Below, piece by piece: positions 1-13,852 of a stretch of 64,000 nucleotides of DNA; within the stretch, counting starts at the first letter, position 1; each line of letters begins with the position of its first letter. This DNA is from an uncultured Candidatus Rokubacteria bacterium (lineage in GTDB: Bacteria > Methylomirabilota > Methylomirabilia > Rokubacteriales > DASRDR01), in NCBI GenBank assembly GCA_963805625.1, contig CAWDVE010000017.1, forward strand, positions 896,001 to 960,000. Direction: 5' to 3'. A program made the position numbers and the translations under genes. The notes beneath the pieces were generated by a model, which saw only the letters and a program-made list of their open reading frames with translations, was not told the DNA's origin and made no database searches.

Positions 1-190
1 AGCCCGGGAGCGATTCGACCGGCAGGTCATCCTGCGGGTGCTCGAGCGGGTGCGATGGAACCAGTCGGAGGCGGCCCGGCTTCTCGGCCTGCACCGGAAT
101 TCGCTCAAGACCAAGCTCCTGGCCTGGGGGATCGACCCCGTGGCCCTGGCCTCCGCCGGAGGTCGACCGGACGGAGGCGGTGCACAGTAG
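1..190 (+). CDS. C-terminus (Fis-type HTH) of a probable sigma54-dependent NtrC-family activator, 5'-truncated by the window
   Basis: Manual translation of frame 2: ARERFDRQVILRVLERVRWNQSEAARLLGLHRNSLKTKLLAWGID...GAQ, stop TAG 188-190. WNQSEAARLLGLHRNSL is the typical HTH_8 of enhancer-binding proteins. Confidence 0.85.
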   Translation, partial: ARERFDRQVILRVLERVRWNQSEAARLLGLHRNSLKTKLLAWGIDPVALASAGGRPDGGGAQ

Positions 191-220
191 ACAGTGCAGG
201 GTGCACAGTCTAGTGTGCAC
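179..220. promoter_or_regulatory. Two tandem palindromic TGCAC-N8-GTGCA boxes (candidate upstream activator sites)
   Basis: ggTGCACagtagacaGTGCA (179-198) and ggTGCACagtctagtGTGCAc (200-220), 21 bp apart. They resemble the NtrC site TGCAC-N7-GTGCA. Confidence 0.7.
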
Positions 221-280
221 TGTGTCGTAAACACCTGATTCTCTGGATTGGGTCGGGGCGGTCCGCCCCCGATCCTTGAG

Positions 281-308
281 CGAGGTGCACAAGAAACAGT
301 GCACCTCG
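281..308. promoter_or_regulatory. Third TGCAC-N8-GTGCA box with 10-bp perfect arms
   Basis: cgaggtgcac-aagaaaca-gtgcacctcg; centre about 135 bp upstream of the predicted sigma54 start site. Confidence 0.75.
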
Positions 309-403
309 GCTCGGGCCCGATGTATCGAGCTTCGGGCGCGCGCGATCCTGATTTCGCCGTGCTGGCGGACACTTCCGCCCCGGAGGGGCCAGCCAATTGA
401 TCA

Positions 404-418
404 TGGCCCCAGCATTGC
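404..418 (+). promoter_or_regulatory. Sigma54 (-24/-12) promoter
   Basis: TGGCCCCAGCATTGC matches TGGCAC-N5-TTGC, with GG at 405-406 and GC at 417-418 at exact canonical spacing. Confidence 0.8.
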
Positions 419-450
419 TCCTTCCTCGTCGAGTTGTTAGGACCCACAAC

Positions 451-471
451 ACGTCCCGTTAAGCGGGACGT
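451..471 (+). other. 5'-UTR stem-loop
   Basis: acgtcccg-ttaag-cgggacgt, an 8-bp perfect stem just upstream of the AAGGAG RBS (475-480). Confidence 0.55.
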
Positions 472-487
472 ACAAAGGAGACTTTCC

Positions 488-622
488 ATGACCAAGCTCA
501 CGGCCCTTCTCGTGCTCATCGCCTCCTTTCTGTTCGTGGCCCCAGTGATCGAGTCGGGGACGCTGACCTCGGGGCCCATCTTCCAGGCGGTCGGCAACGC
601 CTCCGATGGCGGCGGCGACTAG
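488..622 (+). CDS. 44-aa small secreted-peptide-like protein (peptide A)
   Basis: AAGGAG RBS then ATG 488. MTKLTALLVLIASFLFVAPVIESGTLTSGPIFQAVGNASDGGGD has a basic N-terminus, a hydrophobic stretch and a polar tail. First ORF after the sigma54 promoter; a paralogue follows. Confidence 0.8.
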   Translation: MTKLTALLVLIASFLFVAPVIESGTLTSGPIFQAVGNASDGGGD

Positions 623-700
623 CCCCCACCCTGGAGAGAGCGATCTGGCGCAGCCAACGAACGTCACGGGTGCGTAGCTCGGCAGGTCGAGGAGGGTATC

Positions 701-838
701 ATGACGTAGACATGGACGATTATGGTCATCGTGGCGTCCTTGCCGTTCGTCGCTCTGTGGACCGAGCCGGTGACGTTGGTCTTGGAGTCCGTCTCCCAGG
801 GGGTGGACTATGCCAAGGATGGCGCCGTCGGCTGGTAG
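701..838 (+). pseudogene. Tandem paralogue of peptide A (peptide B) with an amber codon at position 3
   Basis: GGAGG RBS at 691-695, ATG 701. MT*TWTIMVIVASLPFVALWTEPVTLVLESVSQGVDYAKDGAVGW aligns without gaps to peptide A (16/44 identities by hand count). Codon 3 is AAG in A and TAG in B. Internal ATG at 722. Confidence 0.7.
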
Positions 839-855
839 CGGGTGCGCGGAATTGG

Positions 856-2496
856 ATGCGTGTCGCCGGGAGGGGACAGTGCCCGCGCGGTCGCTGGTGG
901 GTCGGCTGCATGATCCTGGGGGTGCTCTGGCTCTCTCCAGGCCTCAGGCCGGGGAAAGTCGAGGCCCAGGAGCGCGGGGTCGCCCAGCCGGGCGGAACAT
1001 ATCGGCGGCCTCTCGCAAACGACCCGGCCACGCTGGATCCCGCGCGCCAGCGTGACATCTACAGCCTTGCGGTTGGCCAGCAGCTGTTCGACGGTCTCGT
1101 CGAGTTCGACCAGACGCTCAACATCACGCCGGCGCTCGCCCAGTTCTGGATCGCCTCCCGCGATGGCCTGACCTGGACGTTCACGCTCCGGAAGGGCGTC
1201 AAGTTCCACCACGGGCGGGAGGTGACGGCGGATGACGTCGTCTACTCCTACACCCGACTACTGGATCCCCGCATCCGCTCCGGCGGGGCCGATCTGCTGA
1301 TGAACATCCAGGGGGCGACGGAGTTCCGCGAGGGTCGGGCGAAGCAGGTGGCTGGCCTCGCCGCGCCCGACCGGTACACCGTCCGGGTGACCCTGACCGA
1401 AGCACCGGTGCCCTTCGTCTCCATGTTGGCCGTGGGCCAGGCGAAAATCGTGCCGCGGGAGCTCGTCGAGGAGCGGGGGGACGCCTTCGGGAGTCAGCCG
1501 GTGGGCACGGGCCCCTTCCGGTTCGTCCGCTGGGAGCGCGGGAAGGAGATCGTGCTGGCGGCAAACGCGGACTACTTCGACGGGCCCCCGAAGCTAGCCC
1601 GGCTCATCTTCCGCATCTTCCCGGGGGAGCGCCGTGAAGGGGCGTTCGCGGAGTTCCAGAGGGGGGCTCTCGAGGACAGCTGGATCCCCACCAAGGACTA
1701 CCGCCAGATCATCGCGAGCCAGAGTTATCAGTACTTCCGCCGGCCGATCTTCAACCTCCGTCACTACGGTTTCAACACCCGCACAAAGCCGTTCGACGAT
1801 CGGCGGGTGCGCCAAGCCATCCTCTACGCGGTCGATCGGGAGGCCGTGGTCTCGGAGATCTGGCTCGGCCGGCACGCTCTCGCGCGAGGGATCCTCCCGC
1901 CCGGGACTCTCGGGTTCAATCCGAAGCTCAAAGGCTATCCGTACGACCCCGCGCGCGCGCGCGAGGTTCTCGCCGAGGCGGGCTATCCCGGGGGGCGCGG
2001 GCTCCCTCCGCTCACGATCTGGTCGAGTGTTCGCTCCGAAGAGGTCTTGCGCGAGCACGAGCAGATTCGGAAGGATCTCGAGGCCGTCGGGATCACGGCC
2101 GAGTTCCAGTACAACCCCGACTGGCCAAGCTTCTCCCGGGCGATGCAGGAGCGGAAGCTGCCGATCTTCCTCCGCGCCTGGTTTGCCGACGTCCCGGACC
2201 CCGAGAACTTCCTCGCGAAGCTGTTCCACTCCGGCAGTCCGTTCAACTACATGGGCTACAGCAGCCCGGCAGTGGACGCGCTCCTCGACAAGGCGCGGGC
2301 CGAGCCTGACATGACACGCCGGGTCGAGGTCTATCACCGCGCGGAGGAGATGATCCTGGAGGACGCACCTGTGATTCCCATCTCGCACCAGACGTACGAG
2401 CGCCTCTTCCAGCCGTATGTCAAGGGCGTGGAGGTCAGCGGCCTCGGCGACTCGTACATTCCCTTCCGGAAGGTGTGGCTCGAGCGACCGCCCTGA
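856..2496 (+). CDS. Family-5 (OppA/DppA-like) extracytoplasmic solute-binding protein, with no adjacent permease
   Basis: Motifs DPATLDP, LFDGLVEFD, WTFTLRKGVKFHHG, PVGTGPF. Start moved to ATG 856 (or 910), which precedes a signal-peptide-like segment ending VEA-Q. Confidence 0.9.
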   Translation: MRVAGRGQCPRGRWWVGCMILGVLWLSPGLRPGKVEAQERGVAQPGGTYRRPLANDPATLDPARQRDIYSLAVGQQLFDGLVEFDQTLNITPALAQFWIASRDGLTWTFTLRKGVKFHHGREVTADDVVYSYTRLLDPRIRSGGADLLMNIQGATEFREGRAKQVAGLAAPDRYTVRVTLTEAPVPFVSMLAVGQAKIVPRELVEERGDAFGSQPVGTGPFRFVRWERGKEIVLAANADYFDGPPKLARLIFRIFPGERREGAFAEFQRGALEDSWIPTKDYRQIIASQSYQYFRRPIFNLRHYGFNTRTKPFDDRRVRQAILYAVDREAVVSEIWLGRHALARGILPPGTLGFNPKLKGYPYDPARAREVLAEAGYPGGRGLPPLTIWSSVRSEEVLREHEQIRKDLEAVGITAEFQYNPDWPSFSRAMQERKLPIFLRAWFADVPDPENFLAKLFHSGSPFNYMGYSSPAVDALLDKARAEPDMTRRVEVYHRAEEMILEDAPVIPISHQTYERLFQPYVKGVEVSGLGDSYIPFRKVWLERPP

Positions 2497-2507
2497 TCGG
2501 ACGTCGG

Positions 2508-4424
2508 ATGGCTCGCCCGCTGTTCGTGTCGCTTCGCACCAAGCTCCTCATCGGCACGATCCTGATCGTCGCCGCGCTCATGGCCGCCGTGACCGTCGTC
2601 GTCGAGCATCGACAGCGGACGACCATCATCGAGGAGGTCCACCGCCGCGGCACGGCGATGGCAGAGGGTCTGGCCGGCGTTTCGGCCGGCGCGCTTCTCC
2701 TCTACAACTTCACGGCCCTCGAACAGAATGTCGTGCGCTTCGACCGCGAGACCGACGTGGTCTACGCGATGGTCCTCGACCGGTACGGCGAGGTCGTGGC
2801 GCACAGCCGGGCTCCCGGGGCCGTGGGGTCTACGCTGTCGGATCCGGTGTCCCTCCGCGCTCTCGCCGTCGCGCCCGTGCTCCAGGAAACGACCGGGCCG
2901 GACGGGGAGGCGCTCTACGACATCGCGGTGCCGATCCTGGTCGAGGGGGACCGCTGGGGTACCGTACGCATTGCCCTCTCGCGCAGACGGATGGACGCGG
3001 AGATCTCCGACACCCGGCGGGAGCTGGCGGCGCTGGCCGTGGTCGCCCTCGTGCTGGGCGGTCTGGCGACGGCGATCGTCGCACGGCGCATCGCCCGTCC
3101 GGTGCGCCAGCTGGCCGACGGCGTCGCGGCGATCGCGCGCGGGGAGCTGGACCAGCGCATCGACCCCGGCCGCTCCGACGAGCTCGGCCGGCTGGCGCTC
3201 GCCTTCAACGAGATGGCCGCGCAGCTGCGGCAGCAGCGCACGGACCTCGAGGTCGCCGCCGCGGCGCTGCACCAGCGTTTCGCGGAGCTGTCCGACCTGA
3301 AGAGCTACACCGACCACATCCTCCGGTCCTTCGTGAACGGGCTCGTGACGCTCGACCTCGACGGCCGCGTGGTCACCGTGAACGTCGCCGCGGAGACCCT
3401 CACCGGGTGCGCGGCGAGCGTGCTCACGGGCCGTCCTGCGACAGAGGTGTTCCACCACGTCCCGGAGCTTCGGGACCTGCTCCTCGAGACGCTCCGGACC
3501 CGCGTGGGCGTCCCGCAGGTCGTGCTCATGCTGCCCCGCGGCGAGGGGCGGTCGATCCCGGTGGAGGTCGCGACGACGCCGCTCCGCGGGGCGGAGGGCC
3601 AGGCTCTCGGCGTGGTGGCCATCCTCCGTGACCTGACGCCCGTCCGCCAGCTCGAGGAGCAGCTCCGCCGCTCCGACCGCCTCGCCGCGCTGGGCACGCT
3701 GGCGGCCGGGCTGGCCCACGAGATCAAGAATCCGCTCACGTCAATCATGACGTTCAGCCGGCACGTCGCCCGGCGATTCGACGACGAGCGATTCCGCCAG
3801 CGGTTCCAGAGCGTCGTCCCCCGTGAGCTGGAGCGGATCAACGCCATCGTCGACGGGCTCCTGCGCCTGGCCCGGCCCGCGCGTCTCGTGCTCGCGCCCG
3901 TGCACCTGCCGCCGCTCGTCGAGCAGGCGCTCGAGCTCTACGCGCCCCAGATCGAAGCCCGGCGCATCCGCGTGCGGCGCGAATGGTCGATCAGCGTGCC
4001 ACCGATCCCGGGCGACGCCGAGCACCTGTACCAGGCCTTCCTCAACCTCGTGGCGAACGCCATCGACGCCATGGAGGACGAGGGCGGCACGCTCACGGTG
4101 CGCCTGGGCTGGCCCCAGGCCGCCGAGGGCCTCGGCGCCGCGTTCCGCGACCGACTCGTGCTGGAGGTGATGGATACCGGCAGCGGGATCAAGCCGGAGG
4201 AGACGGCGGAGGTCTTCAACCCCTTCTTCACCACGAAGTCGGGAGGAACGGGGCTCGGGCTTGCCATCGCGCACAAGATCGTCGAGGACCACGGCGGCAC
4301 GGTGACGTTCCGCAGCACCCCCGGCCAGGGGACGGTGTTCACGGTTGCGCTCCCGATCCGGGTTGGCCGGCGCGCCGACCATCCGGCCTCCGGGGAGTGG
4401 CGGATCGGAAGTCAGGCGCCGTGA
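2508..4424 (+). CDS. Membrane sensor histidine kinase (TM - periplasmic domain - TM - HAMP - PAS - HisKA - HATPase)
   Basis: Two hydrophobic helices, HAMP (DELGRLALAFNEM), PAS, H-box LAHEIKNPL, N-box NLVANAIDAM, G boxes DTGSGI and GTGLGL. NtrB/AtoS-like. ATG 2508 lies 11 bp after the SBP stop. Confidence 0.93.
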   Translation: MARPLFVSLRTKLLIGTILIVAALMAAVTVVVEHRQRTTIIEEVHRRGTAMAEGLAGVSAGALLLYNFTALEQNVVRFDRETDVVYAMVLDRYGEVVAHSRAPGAVGSTLSDPVSLRALAVAPVLQETTGPDGEALYDIAVPILVEGDRWGTVRIALSRRRMDAEISDTRRELAALAVVALVLGGLATAIVARRIARPVRQLADGVAAIARGELDQRIDPGRSDELGRLALAFNEMAAQLRQQRTDLEVAAAALHQRFAELSDLKSYTDHILRSFVNGLVTLDLDGRVVTVNVAAETLTGCAASVLTGRPATEVFHHVPELRDLLLETLRTRVGVPQVVLMLPRGEGRSIPVEVATTPLRGAEGQALGVVAILRDLTPVRQLEEQLRRSDRLAALGTLAAGLAHEIKNPLTSIMTFSRHVARRFDDERFRQRFQSVVPRELERINAIVDGLLRLARPARLVLAPVHLPPLVEQALELYAPQIEARRIRVRREWSISVPPIPGDAEHLYQAFLNLVANAIDAMEDEGGTLTVRLGWPQAAEGLGAAFRDRLVLEVMDTGSGIKPEETAEVFNPFFTTKSGGTGLGLAIAHKIVEDHGGTVTFRSTPGQGTVFTVALPIRVGRRADHPASGEWRIGSQAP

Positions 4425-4897
4425 GCGCGCCGGCGGAACTTAGGCGGATGGGGGCCCCCGAGACGCCGCCGCCGAGGGCCGGCCAGTTCGGGGCGCGAGC
4501 CCTCCTCGTCGAGGACGAGCGGCTCGTGGGCGAGCTGCTGGCGGAGTTCCTGGCGCTCGAAGGGTACGAGGTCGACCGGGCGATGAACGGGCGCGAGGCG
4601 CTCGAGCTCGTGCGCCGCCGGGCCTATTCGCTGATCGTGAGCGACGTGCGGATGCCGGACGTGGATGGCCCGGCGCTCTACTACGAGCTCCTGGCCGTGC
4701 GTCCCGAGGTGGTGCGGCGCATGCTGTTCGTCACGGGGGACATCATGGGCGCCGCGACGCGCCGCTTCCTCGATGAGACCTGTCTCCGTTACCTGGAGAA
4801 GCCGTTCACGATCGCCGAGTTCCAGGCGGTGGTCCGGGGCGTGATGGCCGAGCCGTCGAACGCCGGGCCGCGGGAGCCCGGCGCCGCCCCGCCCTGA
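4421..4897 (+). CDS. Single-domain response regulator (receiver)
   Basis: LLVEDE, SDVRMP (phospho-Asp), FVTG, LEKPF. GTG 4421 overlaps the kinase stop (GTGA); alternative ATG at 4448. Confidence 0.85.
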   Translation: MSAPAELRRMGAPETPPPRAGQFGARALLVEDERLVGELLAEFLALEGYEVDRAMNGREALELVRRRAYSLIVSDVRMPDVDGPALYYELLAVRPEVVRRMLFVTGDIMGAATRRFLDETCLRYLEKPFTIAEFQAVVRGVMAEPSNAGPREPGAAPP

Positions 4898-4918
4898 GGC
4901 ACCGCGGTTCGCTGCAGC

Positions 4919-6592
<1,674 letters not shown>

Positions 6593-10604: not shown

Positions 10605-10715
10605 GCGTGGCGCGCCTCCACTGAGCGCGGGCCCGCGCGGCCGGCGGTCCAGTTACCCATCGTCATGGTCCGCGCTCTCGTCAATGGAAGCCCACCCAAG
10701 CGTCAGGCCAACCCG

Positions 10716-10978
10716 GTTCCAGGCTAGAGGCGCTCGATCTCGACGCGGTTGTCGTGAAAGACGGCGCCGCCGCCCATGTCGGCGTCTCGCTCGTCCACGG
10801 TGGCGTTGACGGTCGCGCGTCCTTCGACAGCCGCGGCCAGCGCCCCTTGGTGCTGGCGATCACGCCCGGCCGGACCCGTGGGGTCACCTCGACCTGCGCG
10901 ACGAACGCGCCGCGGTCGTTGAAGACACGGGTCTCGCAGCCGGTCTCGAGCCGCCGGGGCGTCGCGTCCTCGGGGTGG
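10716..10978 (-). repeat. Displaced duplicate of the 3' end of the molybdopterin oxidoreductase gene (copy of 11775-12038)
   Basis: Near-identical over ~263 bp, with scattered substitutions and a 1-nt deletion near 10826 (ggtcgcgcgt vs ggtcgcaccgt) that frameshifts this copy. Confidence 0.93.
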
Positions 10979-11034
10979 CGGGTCCCGTCCCGCACGGGAA
11001 TTCGCAGGTCGCGCTCGATCCGGACGTCGTCCAT
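10979..11034 (-). pseudogene. N-terminal remnant resembling CocE/NonD hydrolases, fused to the duplicated fragment
   Basis: GGAGG RBS and MDDVRIERDLRIPVRDGT, the characteristic CocE/NonD start, joined directly to HPEDA of the Mo-enzyme fragment. Confidence 0.55.
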
Positions 11035-11121
11035 CGCGCTCTATCGCCCTCCTCGGCACACGGCGTGGGGGACAGCGCTCGGACGCGGAGTATCGGGCCT
11101 CGGCGCGCGTGAGACATCTCC

Positions 11122-11142
11122 GAGATGAACGTGAGATGAACG
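11122..11142. promoter_or_regulatory. Direct repeat with 11-bp period (candidate winged-helix response regulator site)
   Basis: GAGATGAACG-t-GAGATGAACG in the divergent intergenic region. Confidence 0.4.
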
Positions 11143-11251
11143 GAGAGCCCTGTAGAAGATTTCCCCGCCACGGAAGCCTTGACTCGTCTATCCTGGTTGC
11201 CCAGGAACTACCCGATAAGGTTCCCAGTACACTTTTCAGAGGGAGGCTACC

Positions 11252-11626
11252 ATGAGAGCGTCTTTCATGGCGCTGCTTCTAGTGTTCGGAATCGCGGCCA
11301 TCGCAAATGGCCAGGGGGTCCGAGAAATCGAGATTCACGCCGAGAAGGTGGGGGACGTCGTCCACTGGATGCCTGAAAAGATTGAAGTCGTTCCGGGAGA
11401 GACCGTACTGTTTGTCCTCAACCACACACTGGAAGGGGGCTTCGCCTTTCACGGGATTGAGATCGAGCCGCTCCAGATAGAAGTGAAGGTGGAGAGAAAC
11501 AAGCCCTTGAAGATCGAACGGCAGATTCCGCTGACCTTAAAGCCTGGTGAATACCCTATCGGATGCCAGTACCATCCGAAACACGTACCGGCGACATTGG
11601 TCGTGAAAGAGCCGAAGGCCTCTTAA
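11252..11626 (+). CDS. Secreted cupredoxin-domain protein, nitrosocyanin-like
   Basis: GGAGG RBS, signal peptide, PEKIEVVPGETV, FHG, GEYPIGCQYHPKHVPATLVV (Cys-x2-His-x2-His). Visibly more AT-rich than its neighbours. Confidence 0.85.
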   Translation: MRASFMALLLVFGIAAIANGQGVREIEIHAEKVGDVVHWMPEKIEVVPGETVLFVLNHTLEGGFAFHGIEIEPLQIEVKVERNKPLKIERQIPLTLKPGEYPIGCQYHPKHVPATLVVKEPKAS

Positions 11627-11782
11627 GGCTAGATTGGCCCGGGTAATCCACGAGCGGGCTCCCGGCTGAATGCCGGTGATCGAAAGCCCGTCGCTCGCCC
11701 CCTCGTGCCCCTGGTTTCGCCGCTTCCGGCGTGTCCTCGCTCCGGCGCGCGCTTACCCGGTGGCCGCGGGCCCCGTTCCAGG

Positions 11783-13852
11783 CTAGAGGCGCTCGATCTC
11801 GACCCGGTTGTCGTGAAAGACGGCGCCACCGCCCATGTCGGCGTCTCGCTCATCCACGGTGGCGTTGACGGTCGCACCGTCCTTCGACAGCCGCGGCCAG
11901 CGCCCCTTGGTGCTGGCGACCACGCCCGGCCGGACCCGCGGGGTCACCTCGACCTGCGCGACGAACGCGCCGCGATCGTTGAAGACGCGGGTCTCGCAGC
12001 CGGTCTCGAGCCGCCGGGGCGTCGCGTCCTCGGGGTGGACGCGGATGGTCGTCGGGCCGGAGCGCCGCGTCTGGGCGGGGACGTTCGCGAACACCGAGTT
12101 CACGAAGTAGTGGTCGGCGCCCGCGATCAGAGCCAGCGGGTACCGGGCGGCCAGCGGCGTGCCGCGCTGGGCCGCCTCGTAGGGCGGCGTGTAGCCCGCG
12201 AGCGGGTCGAGCCCCGCCCCGGTCATGCGAGCGGTGTAGAACTCGAGCTTTCCGGACGGCGACGGGAAGCCGTCGGCGAACGGTACGAACGGCTCCGGGA
12301 CGGCGAGCCGCATCCAGCCTCGCTTCCTCAGGGCGTCGAACGTGATGCCGCAGAGCGACGGGTGATCCGAGTCGAGAAGCTGGCGTGCCAGCTCCTCGTC
12401 ACTGTCGTACAGGCAGGGCACGTCCAGACCCAGGCGCCGCGCTAGACGCCGGAAGATCTCGGTGGTGGGCAGGCACTCCCCGGGCGGCGCCACCGCGGGC
12501 TCGTTCCACGAGATGTAGAGGTGCCCGTACGAGATCTGGACGTCCGCATGTTCGAGCTGCATCGTAGCGGGGAGCACGATATCCGCGTAGTCGACGGTGT
12601 CCGTCCGGAAGTGCTCGACGACCACCGTGAAGAGGTCGGGCCGCGCGAGCCCCCGCCGGATCTTCGTCTGGTGCGGCACGCTGGCGGCCGGGTTGCTCGC
12701 GTAGACGAACAAGGCCTTGACCGGCGGGTCCGTGACCTCGAGAAGGCCTTCGCCGAGCCGGGTCATGCTCAGCGCGCGCGCGGCGGTCTTCCGCAGATCG
12801 TCTCGATAGAGCTGCGCCCAGTTCACGCCGAAGAAGCCGCGTGTGTCGTAGCCAGCGCCGCCGCCGGGATATCGCCAGTCGCCGGTGACGCCCGGGATGC
12901 AGGTGATGGTCCGCACGGCCATCCCACCGCCGCCGTGTCGCTGGAGCCCCATCGTCACCCGGATGCCCGTGGGGCGCGTGCGGGCGATCCGCTTCCCCAG
13001 CTCCACGATCGCGTTGACGGGGAGGCCGCAGATCTCGGCGACGCGAGCCGGCGGGTAGTCCCGGATGCGCCGGCGGAACGCGTCCCAGCCGAGGGTGTGG
13101 CGGTCGATGAAGTCGCGATCCTGTGCGCCCTCGCTCAGCACGACGTGCAGGAGTCCGAGCGCCAGCGCGGCGTCGGTCCCGGGCACGGGCGCCAGGTGGC
13201 TGTCCGCGGCTTCGGCGGTGCGTGTCCGGGTCGGGTCGATCACCACCAGGTGGGCACCGTTCCGACGCGCCGTCGTGATGGGGCGCCAGAGGTGATGGTT
13301 GGTGCTCAGCGTGTTGCTGCCCCAGAGGATGATGAGCTTCGAGAAGCGGAGGGTCTCGGGATCCATGCCCACGCGGTTGTCGCCGAGCGTGTAGCCGGTT
13401 CCCACCCCGCCCGCGATCGTGCAGATCGTCATGAGGTGCCGGGAGGTGCCGACGACGTTCCAGAGCCGGCGCCCCGCGCCGTAGACGCCCTGGAGGAGCC
13501 CCATGCTGCCCGAGCCCACGTACGGCCATATGGCTTCAGCGCCGAACTCGCGGATGACGCTGCCCAGCCGCTCGGCGATCTCGTCGAGCGCCCCGTCCCA
13601 AGAGATCCGCTCGAAGTCGCCGGCCCCCTTCGGGCCGACGCGCCGCATCGGGTACAGGAGGCGCCCGGGGGACTGCGTGTACGCGACATAGTCGTCGAGC
13701 TTGTTGCACAGGACGCCGCGCGTGAAGGGGTGATCGGCATCGCCCTCGAGCCGCACGGCGCGGCCATCGCGCACGGTGACCACCCAGCTACAGGTGTCCG
13801 GGCAGTCCATCGGGCAGGCCCCGGGGATCCGCTGCTCGCCGCTCGCCGTCAT
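11783..13852 (-). CDS. Molybdopterin (bis-MGD) oxidoreductase family protein
   Basis: N-terminal CPMDCPDTC...LCNK Fe-S motif, RISWD, DYADIVLPA, C-terminal dinucleotide-binding domain (HPEDA...FHDNRVEI). Confidence 0.93.
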   Translation of the reverse strand: MTASGEQRIPGACPMDCPDTCSWVVTVRDGRAVRLEGDADHPFTRGVLCNKLDDYVAYTQSPGRLLYPMRRVGPKGAGDFERISWDGALDEIAERLGSVIREFGAEAIWPYVGSGSMGLLQGVYGAGRRLWNVVGTSRHLMTICTIAGGVGTGYTLGDNRVGMDPETLRFSKLIILWGSNTLSTNHHLWRPITTARRNGAHLVVIDPTRTRTAEAADSHLAPVPGTDAALALGLLHVVLSEGAQDRDFIDRHTLGWDAFRRRIRDYPPARVAEICGLPVNAIVELGKRIARTRPTGIRVTMGLQRHGGGGMAVRTITCIPGVTGDWRYPGGGAGYDTRGFFGVNWAQLYRDDLRKTAARALSMTRLGEGLLEVTDPPVKALFVYASNPAASVPHQTKIRRGLARPDLFTVVVEHFRTDTVDYADIVLPATMQLEHADVQISYGHLYISWNEPAVAPPGECLPTTEIFRRLARRLGLDVPCLYDSDEELARQLLDSDHPSLCGITFDALRKRGWMRLAVPEPFVPFADGFPSPSGKLEFYTARMTGAGLDPLAGYTPPYEAAQRGTPLAARYPLALIAGADHYFVNSVFANVPAQTRRSGPTTIRVHPEDATPRRLETGCETRVFNDRGAFVAQVEVTPRVRPGVVASTKGRWPRLSKDGATVNATVDERDADMGGGAVFHDNRVEIERL

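Follow-up and report, generated by a model that had tools for sequence, protein, structure and literature searches.

A candidate peptide-autoinduction block with an orphan family-5 binding protein and a Cache kinase in an uncultured Rokubacteria bacterium

The DNA analysed here (the window; 64,000 nt, contig CAWDVE010000017.1, positions 896,001 to 960,000) comes from an uncultured Candidatus Rokubacteria bacterium with a genome of 7.3 Mb (G000), and its first 4,897 positions carry, on one strand, the end of a sigma54 activator gene, a short open reading frame (ORF), a gene for an orphan family-5 substrate-binding protein (SBP) and a sensor kinase gene. The question raised by this locus is whether the short ORF encodes a signal that the SBP and the kinase read. 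An autoinducing SBP-kinase-activator circuit had been proposed from the letters of the window (the original prediction), and this interpretation is supported by the present analysis, amended to one intact precursor and with the receiver gene placed outside the core. In the proposed mechanism the 44-aa precursor would be exported and cut after Gly-Asn-Ala, and SDGGGD, the acidic and glycine-rich peptide set free in this way, would bind the periplasmic SBP; the loaded SBP would signal through the neighbouring Cache kinase, the kinase would phosphorylate the activator, the activator would drive the peptide gene from its sigma54 promoter and the ~0.5-kDa peptide may escape through the outer membrane and report cell density or confinement. 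Autoinduction by a peptide that is read by SBP and kinase is, as judged from sequence, the interpretation towards which we lean. The features on which it is built are the following:

1-190, plus strand: 3' end (HTH) of an NtrC-family activator gene, full gene 479 aa, REC-AAA+-HTH
181-219 (181-198 and 202-219), no strand: pair of TGCAC-N8-GTGCA boxes, likely activator-binding sites
286-303, no strand: third TGCAC-N8-GTGCA box, 118 nt ahead of the promoter
404-418, plus strand: sigma54-type -24/-12 promoter, TGGC-N7-TTGC with exact spacing
488-622, plus strand: 44-aa precursor with ribosome-binding site (RBS) at 474-480, basic N-region, hydrophobic region, APVIESG, FQAxGxA and tail
856-2496, plus strand: orphan family-5 SBP, 546 aa, DppA/OppA fold, signal peptide ending VEA
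2508-4424, plus strand: sensor kinase, 638 aa, transmembrane helix-sCache-transmembrane helix-HAMP-PAS-HisKA-HATPase, sCache_3_2, H404

When the layout was compared with the original prediction, the HTH read at the window start proved to be the end of an activator ORF that begins 1250 nt ahead of the window and holds all three domains of the proposed check (REC, sigma54 AAA+ and HTH_8). Its phospho-acceptor D63, Walker A motif and GAFTGA at 228 are all present, which fits NtrC-family sigma54 activators, and it scores under the cut-off of every named NCBIfam family listed (top AtoC, 468 of 714 bits). The three palindromic boxes were recovered as described, and the "exact" -24/-12 promoter has the spacing claimed for it, with CC at positions 5-6, where the sigma54 consensus has AC. 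A family-5 binding protein without permease or ATPase had been noted, and the SBP_bac_5 gene has neither from the activator to the convergent ABC-F-type gene beyond the receiver; the kinase gene does follow after an 11-nt gap and overlaps a receiver gene at 4421-4424. The host, considered a probable diderm, is a diderm and has Omp85, LpxC and signal peptidase I.

Is the short ORF a regular part of such loci? A dereplicated tree of 188 SBPs revealed one clade of 134 (FastTree support 0.989), spanning Methylomirabilota, Desulfobacterota and Entotheonella, with a permease link in none of its members (0/134); SBP matches of <400 aa or with X, near-duplicates (>90%) and loci with <600 nt upstream were dropped before the tree counts. 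A short precursor lies upstream of 104 of the 115 clade members with at least 600 nt of upstream DNA vs none of 52 SBPs outside the clade (41 of them permease-linked), the kinase is directly downstream in 77 of the 78 precursor loci with enough DNA and the activator upstream in 77 of 83. The small ORF that the original prediction expected upstream of homologous SBP-kinase loci is found there, with promoter and often boxes. Precursor loci number 111, or 110 without L029, a locus from an unpublished genome. In all 30 loci returned as best SBP matches (the window locus included) the precursor stands upstream in 1-5 copies, and other genomes of the genus keep 2-5 copies; SBPs of loci in records titled Candidatus Rokubacteria or uncultured bacterium share 81-82% identity with that of the window. 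Throughout the phylum the order activator-precursor-SBP-kinase is conserved and the part 3' of the kinase varies.

Pairwise, non-independent comparison of 69 Rokubacteria copies of the precursor gave 14016 synonymous vs 4042 non-synonymous single-base differences, pointing to coding selection. A profile made from 20 copies matches 97 of the 201 genomes of the phylum (a tally including two rows from unpublished genomes; no conclusion here rests on the unpublished genomes, G055 and G524) and 1882 proteins, and among the 120 of these listed there is no Pfam domain and no name beyond 'hypothetical'; the precursors themselves gave no match in Pfam or NCBIfam. Metatranscriptome contigs of near-identical strains span the precursor gene in three of four runs, with small word shares and with strand, start and level not readable, and are not taken as evidence of expression.

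What the precursors have in common appeared when other phyla were compared. Genome and metagenome collections, together with 401 genomes of the Desulforhabdus phylum, yielded the same block in records titled NC10, Deltaproteobacteria, Thermodesulfobacteriota, Syntrophaceae and Desulforhabdus, and it is conserved in at least two further bacterial groups; the collection scans covered 14 and 13 of 64 parts and the best 80 were kept, so that the taxonomic range is a lower bound. ORFs in the other phyla were chosen by RBS, basic start and hydrophobicity, the tail not being a criterion. Four precursor types could be distinguished that are barely alike (local scores 23-44 between and 80-137 within types, the last seven residues removed) and that all end alike, with small-x-Ala and a [D/E]-Gly-Gly tail of 4-9 residues. 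The Desulfobacterota precursor has only 29-33 aa, a signal peptide ending P-V-L-A and 5-7 further residues (DGSGY, EGGGY, DGGGW), while the NC10 form carries G-[FLM]-A followed by EGGP-like tails, the Rokubacteria form G-[NTD]-A followed by DGGGW-like tails and a fourth type A-Y-A followed by DDGGGN-like tails. Among 126 distinct precursors, D or E is found in the first two tail positions in 112 and at least two Gly in 123. The signal parts diverge between the types and their hydrophobic parts are not conserved, the tails agree, and the -3/-1 residues GxA, VLA and AYA fit signal peptidase; the conserved cargo is, on this comparison, apparently the tail after small-x-Ala. Since the tail follows small-x-Ala directly, signal peptidase alone may release the peptide. 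In the window the predicted cut falls after A38 (Gly-Asn-Ala) and would yield SDGGGD (602-619); the signal peptidase I pattern (basic N-region, hydrophobic core, small residues at -3/-1) is present, with an unusually long c-region in the Rokubacteria form. Some tails begin with Cys, at L242 and L244 (VLA|C, lipobox-like) and at L004-L012 (GNA|C), and a lipidated or disulfide-linked form of the signal is possible there.

A second carrier of the motif was found in a sister subclade of 12 SBPs without the short ORF (support 0.989). An S8 subtilase gene lies nearby in nine of the 12, two have too little flank and one has none; the subtilase labels were assigned by hand and then verified by search. 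All nine subtilases carry [D/E]G[G/A] inserts, tandem in six, consisting of tandem ADGGA, GDGGS, ADGGS or ESEGA units or of single EGG motifs and placed after the prodomain and after the SAGN-type loop, and their N-terminus is signal-like wherever the contig includes that end. The receptors of these loci share the Cache-HAMP front, with kinase or HD-GYP output. No S8 match was found in any precursor locus or in 54 outside loci (many of the loci only 4.5 kb), nor was a DGG-repeat subtilase found in G000. In the Desulforhabdus phylum 12 of 401 genomes hold the clade SBP and three of 401 a triple DGG-repeat pattern, two of these beside a clade SBP; the third (G443) was rejected as a repeat protein, being a proline-rich stretch read antisense. 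Subtilisins can cut after small residues, and cuts after the small residue of the repeats would give DGGAA, DGGSG, DGGAG and DGGSA; DGGSG, DGGAG and EGGAD are also found as tails of short ORFs. The repeat-bearing subtilases would be a second route to the same peptide, and that two unrelated carriers replace each other beside one SBP clade is the strongest argument for the motif as ligand. Among the repeat-bearing subtilases, P0284 is attributed by NCBI to Desulfonema magnum and P0297 to Desulfococcus multivorans, both cultured species.

To what extent can the SBP and the kinase receive such a peptide? The SBP model (pLDDT, predicted local distance difference test, 94.7) superimposes with TM about 0.9 on peptide-bound OppA/DppA structures, including OppA with the PhrE pentapeptide (8are). 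The nearest solved relative is only 31% identical, and the best named NCBIfam family gives 200 of 1005 bits, below the cut-off. W424 (98%) and D427 (99%; numbering from the ATG at 910) coincide with the W-x-x-D motif by which DppA-type proteins are marked, and position 375 holds a basic residue (K/R 89%) where these have Arg, a combination that we take to be the peptide N-terminus clamp of DppA/OppA; for DppA, this Arg and Asp are named in the title of PDB entry 8z1z. The SBP keeps this clamp, whose W-x-x-D part hardly varies within the clade, and it has conserved residues specific to the clade (Y51, K179, W371, E382, Y516). The sensor of the kinase is a single Cache fold of CitA/WalK type between two membrane helices (Z about 15), in which Y66 is invariant and Q73, R47 and R154 are near-invariant, and in kinase and activator the catalytic His, Asp and GAFTGA are intact. 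Covariation between SBP and kinase in 104 paired sequences gave no usable signal (best z 6.1 vs 5.3-7.6 in three shuffles).

Two or three tandem clade SBPs stand ahead of one receptor at L034/L086, L185 and L202 and may read different peptides, while L097 is a clade SBP on a contig titled Phycisphaerae, amid TRAP-transporter-like genes and with no kinase found, possibly a case of re-use or of mis-binning. SBP paralogues of Rokubacteria with 38-42% identity were considered as further dialects and rejected, as they are found in permease operons without precursor; the nearest transport paralogues (L052-L063) form a conserved two-SBP ABC operon between the Pup-proteasome genes and yebC-ruvCAB.

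When analysing the promoter regions, a sigma54 site was identified in 97 of 104 precursor loci vs five of 52 outside the clade; in the precursor loci its distance to the ATG is mostly 74-113 nt. Exact TGCAC-N8-GTGCA sites number 32 in the genome, vs 1-9 for any of the other spacers between 3 and 12. With up to two mismatches allowed, boxes lie ahead of the precursor promoter in 36 of 69 loci from Rokubacteria and in 18 of 32 from Desulfobacterota (counted without shuffle control), mostly ~100-120 and 180-235 nt upstream, some matches falling within the activator gene. The boxes were also considered as a REP-like (repetitive extragenic palindromic) repeat, given that 11 of 16 other clusters had no sigma54 match in a first scan and some lay near insertion sequences, and are retained as activator sites because their position is phased before promoters in two phyla; this assignment does not account for the promoter-less box sites. 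Boxes without sigma54 match nearby (G000:C17:607693, C10:2141935-2143530, C10:1918504 and C17:12288) are situated before an S8 peptidase gene, beside M10/M4 metalloprotease genes, between convergent genes and by insertion sequences.

Elsewhere in the genome a box together with a sigma54 site occurs nine times for spacer 8 vs 1-2 times for spacers 6, 7, 9 and 10. This combination marks a ferredoxin-GAF-kinase operon in the window genome and ten others of 15 in the genus and is also found ahead of strain-specific genes and secreted-protein operons, several with signal-like N-termini; since the genome encodes ~25 sigma54 activators (the rpoN motif is present), this regulon is a candidate only. 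At the ferredoxin loci (G000:C4:189045, L291, and genus loci L283-L298) a conserved box pair and a sigma54 site lie ~270 nt before the 4Fe-4S ferredoxin and GAF kinase genes with a sigma70-type promoter in between, and the 150-nt interval might be a small RNA. Two paralogous three-gene operons (G000:C10:2009975-2013920 and C16:71035-74920) have a box and a sigma54 site in front and encode mostly family-less proteins with signal-like N-termini.

No sigma70 promoter or terminator was found in positions 1-5200 of the window, and an Rfam search of 150-950 gave no match. Among relatives, a terminator-like hairpin follows the precursor in 42 of 111 loci (without shuffle control; none in the window) and a sigma70-like site, in some cases poor, precedes the SBP in 10 of 32 Desulfobacterota loci; in such relatives receptor and signal are probably expressed separately. 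With a hairpin between the peptide gene and SBP-kinase in many relatives, feedback may act mainly on the peptide. A further hairpin lies in the leader of the precursor:

451-471, plus strand: hairpin in the precursor 5' leader

A leader hairpin of at least 6 pairs folds in 54 of 64 Rokubacteria leaders (without shuffle control), and in L015-L031 it is found before the precursor RBS, in many loci with a common CAUGGGGAG loop region; it is a possible protein-binding or stabilising element.

Several observations weigh against peptide autoinduction as proposed. In Rokubacteria precursors APVIESG and FQAxGxA are more conserved than the tail and the predicted cut (after residue 35-43) is far from the hydrophobic region, while ordinary signal peptides are cut closer to it; given this distance and the better conserved middle, a further protease may be needed in this group, or the protein may stay uncut in the membrane. 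An early acid is missing from 14 of 126 tails. The first tail residue is Ser in the window and Cys in many members of the genus. The glycine-rich subtilase repeats could be linkers, and that all 63 subtilase homologues carry 2-39 repeat units is a circular count because the query itself carried repeats. The N8 box is absent in about half of the loci, and box ownership and the partner of the kinase rest on adjacency in a genome with so many sigma54 activators. Six of 83 precursor loci have no adjacent activator, G004 has neither activator nor kinase match, and three of 115 clade loci (L099, L185, L220) have neither precursor type upstream (at L185 a broken S8 gene with stop and frameshift lies downstream). 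The loci are related and non-independent, most of them come from metagenome assemblies, and every step of the mechanism is drawn from sequence.

How else could these genes be connected? The peptide may serve its producer alone, which would sense it in the periplasm to monitor export, the activity of signal peptidase or leakage through the outer membrane, while the amounts that reach neighbours stay too low to matter. Tails nearly identical across phyla, with little sign of strain-specific dialects, would suit such a gauge, as would a release that hinges on housekeeping export and the ease with which Opp/Dpp transport takes short Gly-rich peptides in a genome with many family-5 SBPs; tandem amplification of the precursor (2-5 copies) and up to 39 units per subtilase speak instead for bulk output, the candidate targets include secreted proteins, and we regard the gauge as unlikely. 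Marginally less likely still is negative feedback, in which the kinase would be damped by the small protein or by its tail, as an MgrB-like membrane inhibitor or a competitor for the SBP pocket, and would in truth respond to a peptide or metabolite from outside. MgrB is a 47-aa inhibitor of PhoQ encoded in its regulon (PMC8404706) and apo-CBP represses ChiS, so that signs can invert (PMC8050422), and the better conserved middle of the Rokubacteria precursor would agree with an inhibitor; against it, the Desulfobacterota form is a signal peptide with 5-7 residues only, the tail and not the hydrophobic part is conserved between types, and soluble subtilase repeats replace the ORF.

It is very improbable that the peptide binds the Cache domain of the kinase directly with the SBP as a sink or buffer setting the threshold: the CitA/WalK-type single Cache fold is a small-ligand binder in CitA, but the SBP retains the peptide clamp and its clade-specific residues, adjoins the same Cache receptor even where the output is HD-GYP, and SBP genes adjoining kinases typically serve them (PMC8050422). 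Hardly to be expected at all is a Gly-rich tail that is a mere stub, with an SBP that senses some unrelated solute and with small ORF and subtilase as co-regulated passengers; family-5 proteins do bind many non-peptide ligands (opines, aminoserine, nickel complexes) and the solved relatives of this SBP are distant, yet the precursor accompanies 104 of 115 clade SBPs and 0 of 52 outside, and the same motif arises in two unrelated carriers.

Returning to peptide autoinduction, its steps are not independent of each other and differ in strength. The activator very probably drives the precursor promoter, and signalling of the SBP through the adjacent receptor is held with good confidence; that the tail is the ligand of the SBP is probable from the sequence comparisons, and the kinase likely feeds the adjacent activator. 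Given the rest, a circuit that is positive and shared between cells is fairly likely. We infer the cleavage site, the ligand, the SBP-kinase contact, the phosphotransfer partner, the positive sign and the escape through the outer membrane; sequence does not decide whether the feedback is positive or negative. A link from peptide through SBP to receptor, whichever its sign, is strongly favoured, because the periplasmic gauge and negative feedback share most of the chemistry. Evenly balanced in our view is a wider reading, namely that the block belongs to a third class of peptide signalling in bacteria, next to kinases that bind their peptide directly and RRNPP pheromones that are imported: linear [D/E]GG peptides of diderms, taken from the tail of a minimal signal-peptide gene or diced as repeats from a secreted subtilase, would be read by a family-5 SBP on a Cache receptor wired to sigma54 activators or to c-di-GMP (cyclic di-GMP), and the near-identical tails would be a shared language among soil and sediment taxa of several phyla.

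Two further features of the window belong to the block or its edge:

691-838, plus strand: decayed tandem precursor copy, with RBS, ATG at 701 and stop at 707-709
4421-4897, plus strand: stand-alone receiver with D75, overlapping the kinase gene

Two paralogous ORFs of ~45 codons had been predicted, of which the first stands, intact and under coding selection, and the second does not: behind its RBS it reads ATG ACG TAG, and with one profile it scores E 0.5 vs 6e-24 for the first, from which it differs by 5 synonymous and 15 non-synonymous changes. The codon-3 stop is common to two sister genomes, and a contig from an independent run (piece 678-870) has the identical TAG, its sole difference being at 767. 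The second ORF is a decayed tandem copy of the precursor, and no second precursor was found in G000. Amber read-through was rejected, the frame past the stop having neither conserved motifs nor coding selection. At L044 (G004:C18:327272-331852) five precursor copies, three of them frameshifted, stand with an SBP and without activator or kinase match, which may be a sender-only or decaying locus or the result of assembly errors. The receiver is a variable accessory outside the core of the block; after the kinase, relatives have a lone receiver, hybrid kinases or nothing.

Separate paralogues of the activator (57%; G000:C16:444825-446222) and of the kinase (49%, with receiver; C16:106977-108824) exist in G000 without precursor or SBP, and some of their neighbours match the neighbours of intact loci in G022 and G024, possibly as remains of a second copy. 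A DUF1989 gene stops 5 nt before the activator start (L001:12112-13745); it and a divergent short-chain dehydrogenase gene are kept throughout the genus and not in other families. Downstream in the window, the 3' part of an ORF for a 689-aa molybdopterin-type oxidoreductase (11783-13852, minus strand) is apparently duplicated piecewise at 10681-11877.

If true, the circuit would be a way of signalling by peptides so far undescribed in Gram-negative bacteria. It would also assign a function in signalling to a large family of small proteins without a name (the 1882 matches are of the Rokubacteria type alone), would reinterpret a clade labelled 'ABC transporter substrate-binding protein' and would help to study how an uncultured soil lineage behaves. 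The locus supplies a candidate ligand of 5-6 residues, a receptor chain, a promoter and candidate targets, which makes it cheaply testable. Peptide autoinducers are treated as a Gram-positive trait in PMC10075063, and a publication on quorum sensing by a small protein in a Gram-negative bacterium is listed as retracted (PMC3236232). The original prediction knew of no system with this arrangement, and the literature searched (subscription papers largely outside it) likewise gave no description of the block, its peptides or the subtilase repeats.

The kinases of Agr, ComQXPA and ComCDE are polytopic sensors to which the peptide itself binds, and these systems use dedicated genes for its maturation or export. 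ComX-ComP-ComA, Agr and ComC-ComD-ComE share with the block a peptide signal, a membrane kinase, a response regulator and feedback on the peptide gene (ComQXPA is named among peptide systems in PMC10075063). They differ from its Cache kinase with two transmembrane helices and its SBP, and the block has no maturation or export gene, none being conserved across gene maps of 20 orthologous loci. AioR is sigma54-dependent. AioX-AioS-AioR likewise unites an orphan SBP, an sCache-like kinase and an activator in one operon (PMC8050422); its ligand is the outside inorganic arsenite, its SBP belongs to the Phosphonate-bd family, and it has linked aio genes and no precursor gene. CBP-ChiS of Vibrio is the only family-5 SBP serving a kinase in Table 1 of PMC8050422, a table in which no SBP-kinase pair has a peptide as ligand; here the ligand is a sugar, CBP also serves a transporter and ChiS itself binds DNA. 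ScrA-ScrB-ScrC of Vibrio parahaemolyticus has signal source, SBP and membrane receptor in one operon with c-di-GMP output and resembles the subtilase-SBP-HD-GYP variant, but its signal is an aminotransferase product of unknown structure and its SBP is of family 3 (PMC11315295). The transport SBPs DppA/OppA share the family-5 fold and the W-x-x-D clamp with the window SBP, whose clade differs in having no permease link and which stays below the named-family cut-off.

The LuxPQ-LuxO autoinducer-2 pathway of Vibrio ends in the sigma54 activator LuxO. LuxP-LuxQ-(LuxU)-LuxO is similar in its self-made signal, its periplasmic SBP as co-receptor of a Cache-type kinase and its sigma54 output, LuxP/LuxQ being listed as an SBP-kinase pair (PMC8050422, Table 1); it has a Peripla_BP_4 SBP and a LuxQ-periplasm sensor instead of SBP_bac_5 and a single sCache_3_2, and the ligand in our case would be a ribosomal peptide, with precursor, SBP, kinase and activator in one block. 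Phr, PapR and AimP of the RRNPP systems of Bacillota are short propeptides with a C-terminal pheromone, export being predicted for the precursor here, and family-5 proteins bind such pentapeptides, as OppA does PhrE. RRNPP systems use import and a TPR receptor, an adjacent cytoplasmic one of 250-500 aa being among their criteria (PMC10075063), whereas periplasmic detection in a diderm is proposed here and no TPR family match was found among the neighbours, which are an NtrC-type activator and an SBP. Each module of the block has precedent, and the combination is real, conserved and undescribed in the literature searched; it resembles LuxPQ-LuxO with a Phr-like ligand, yet belongs to neither.

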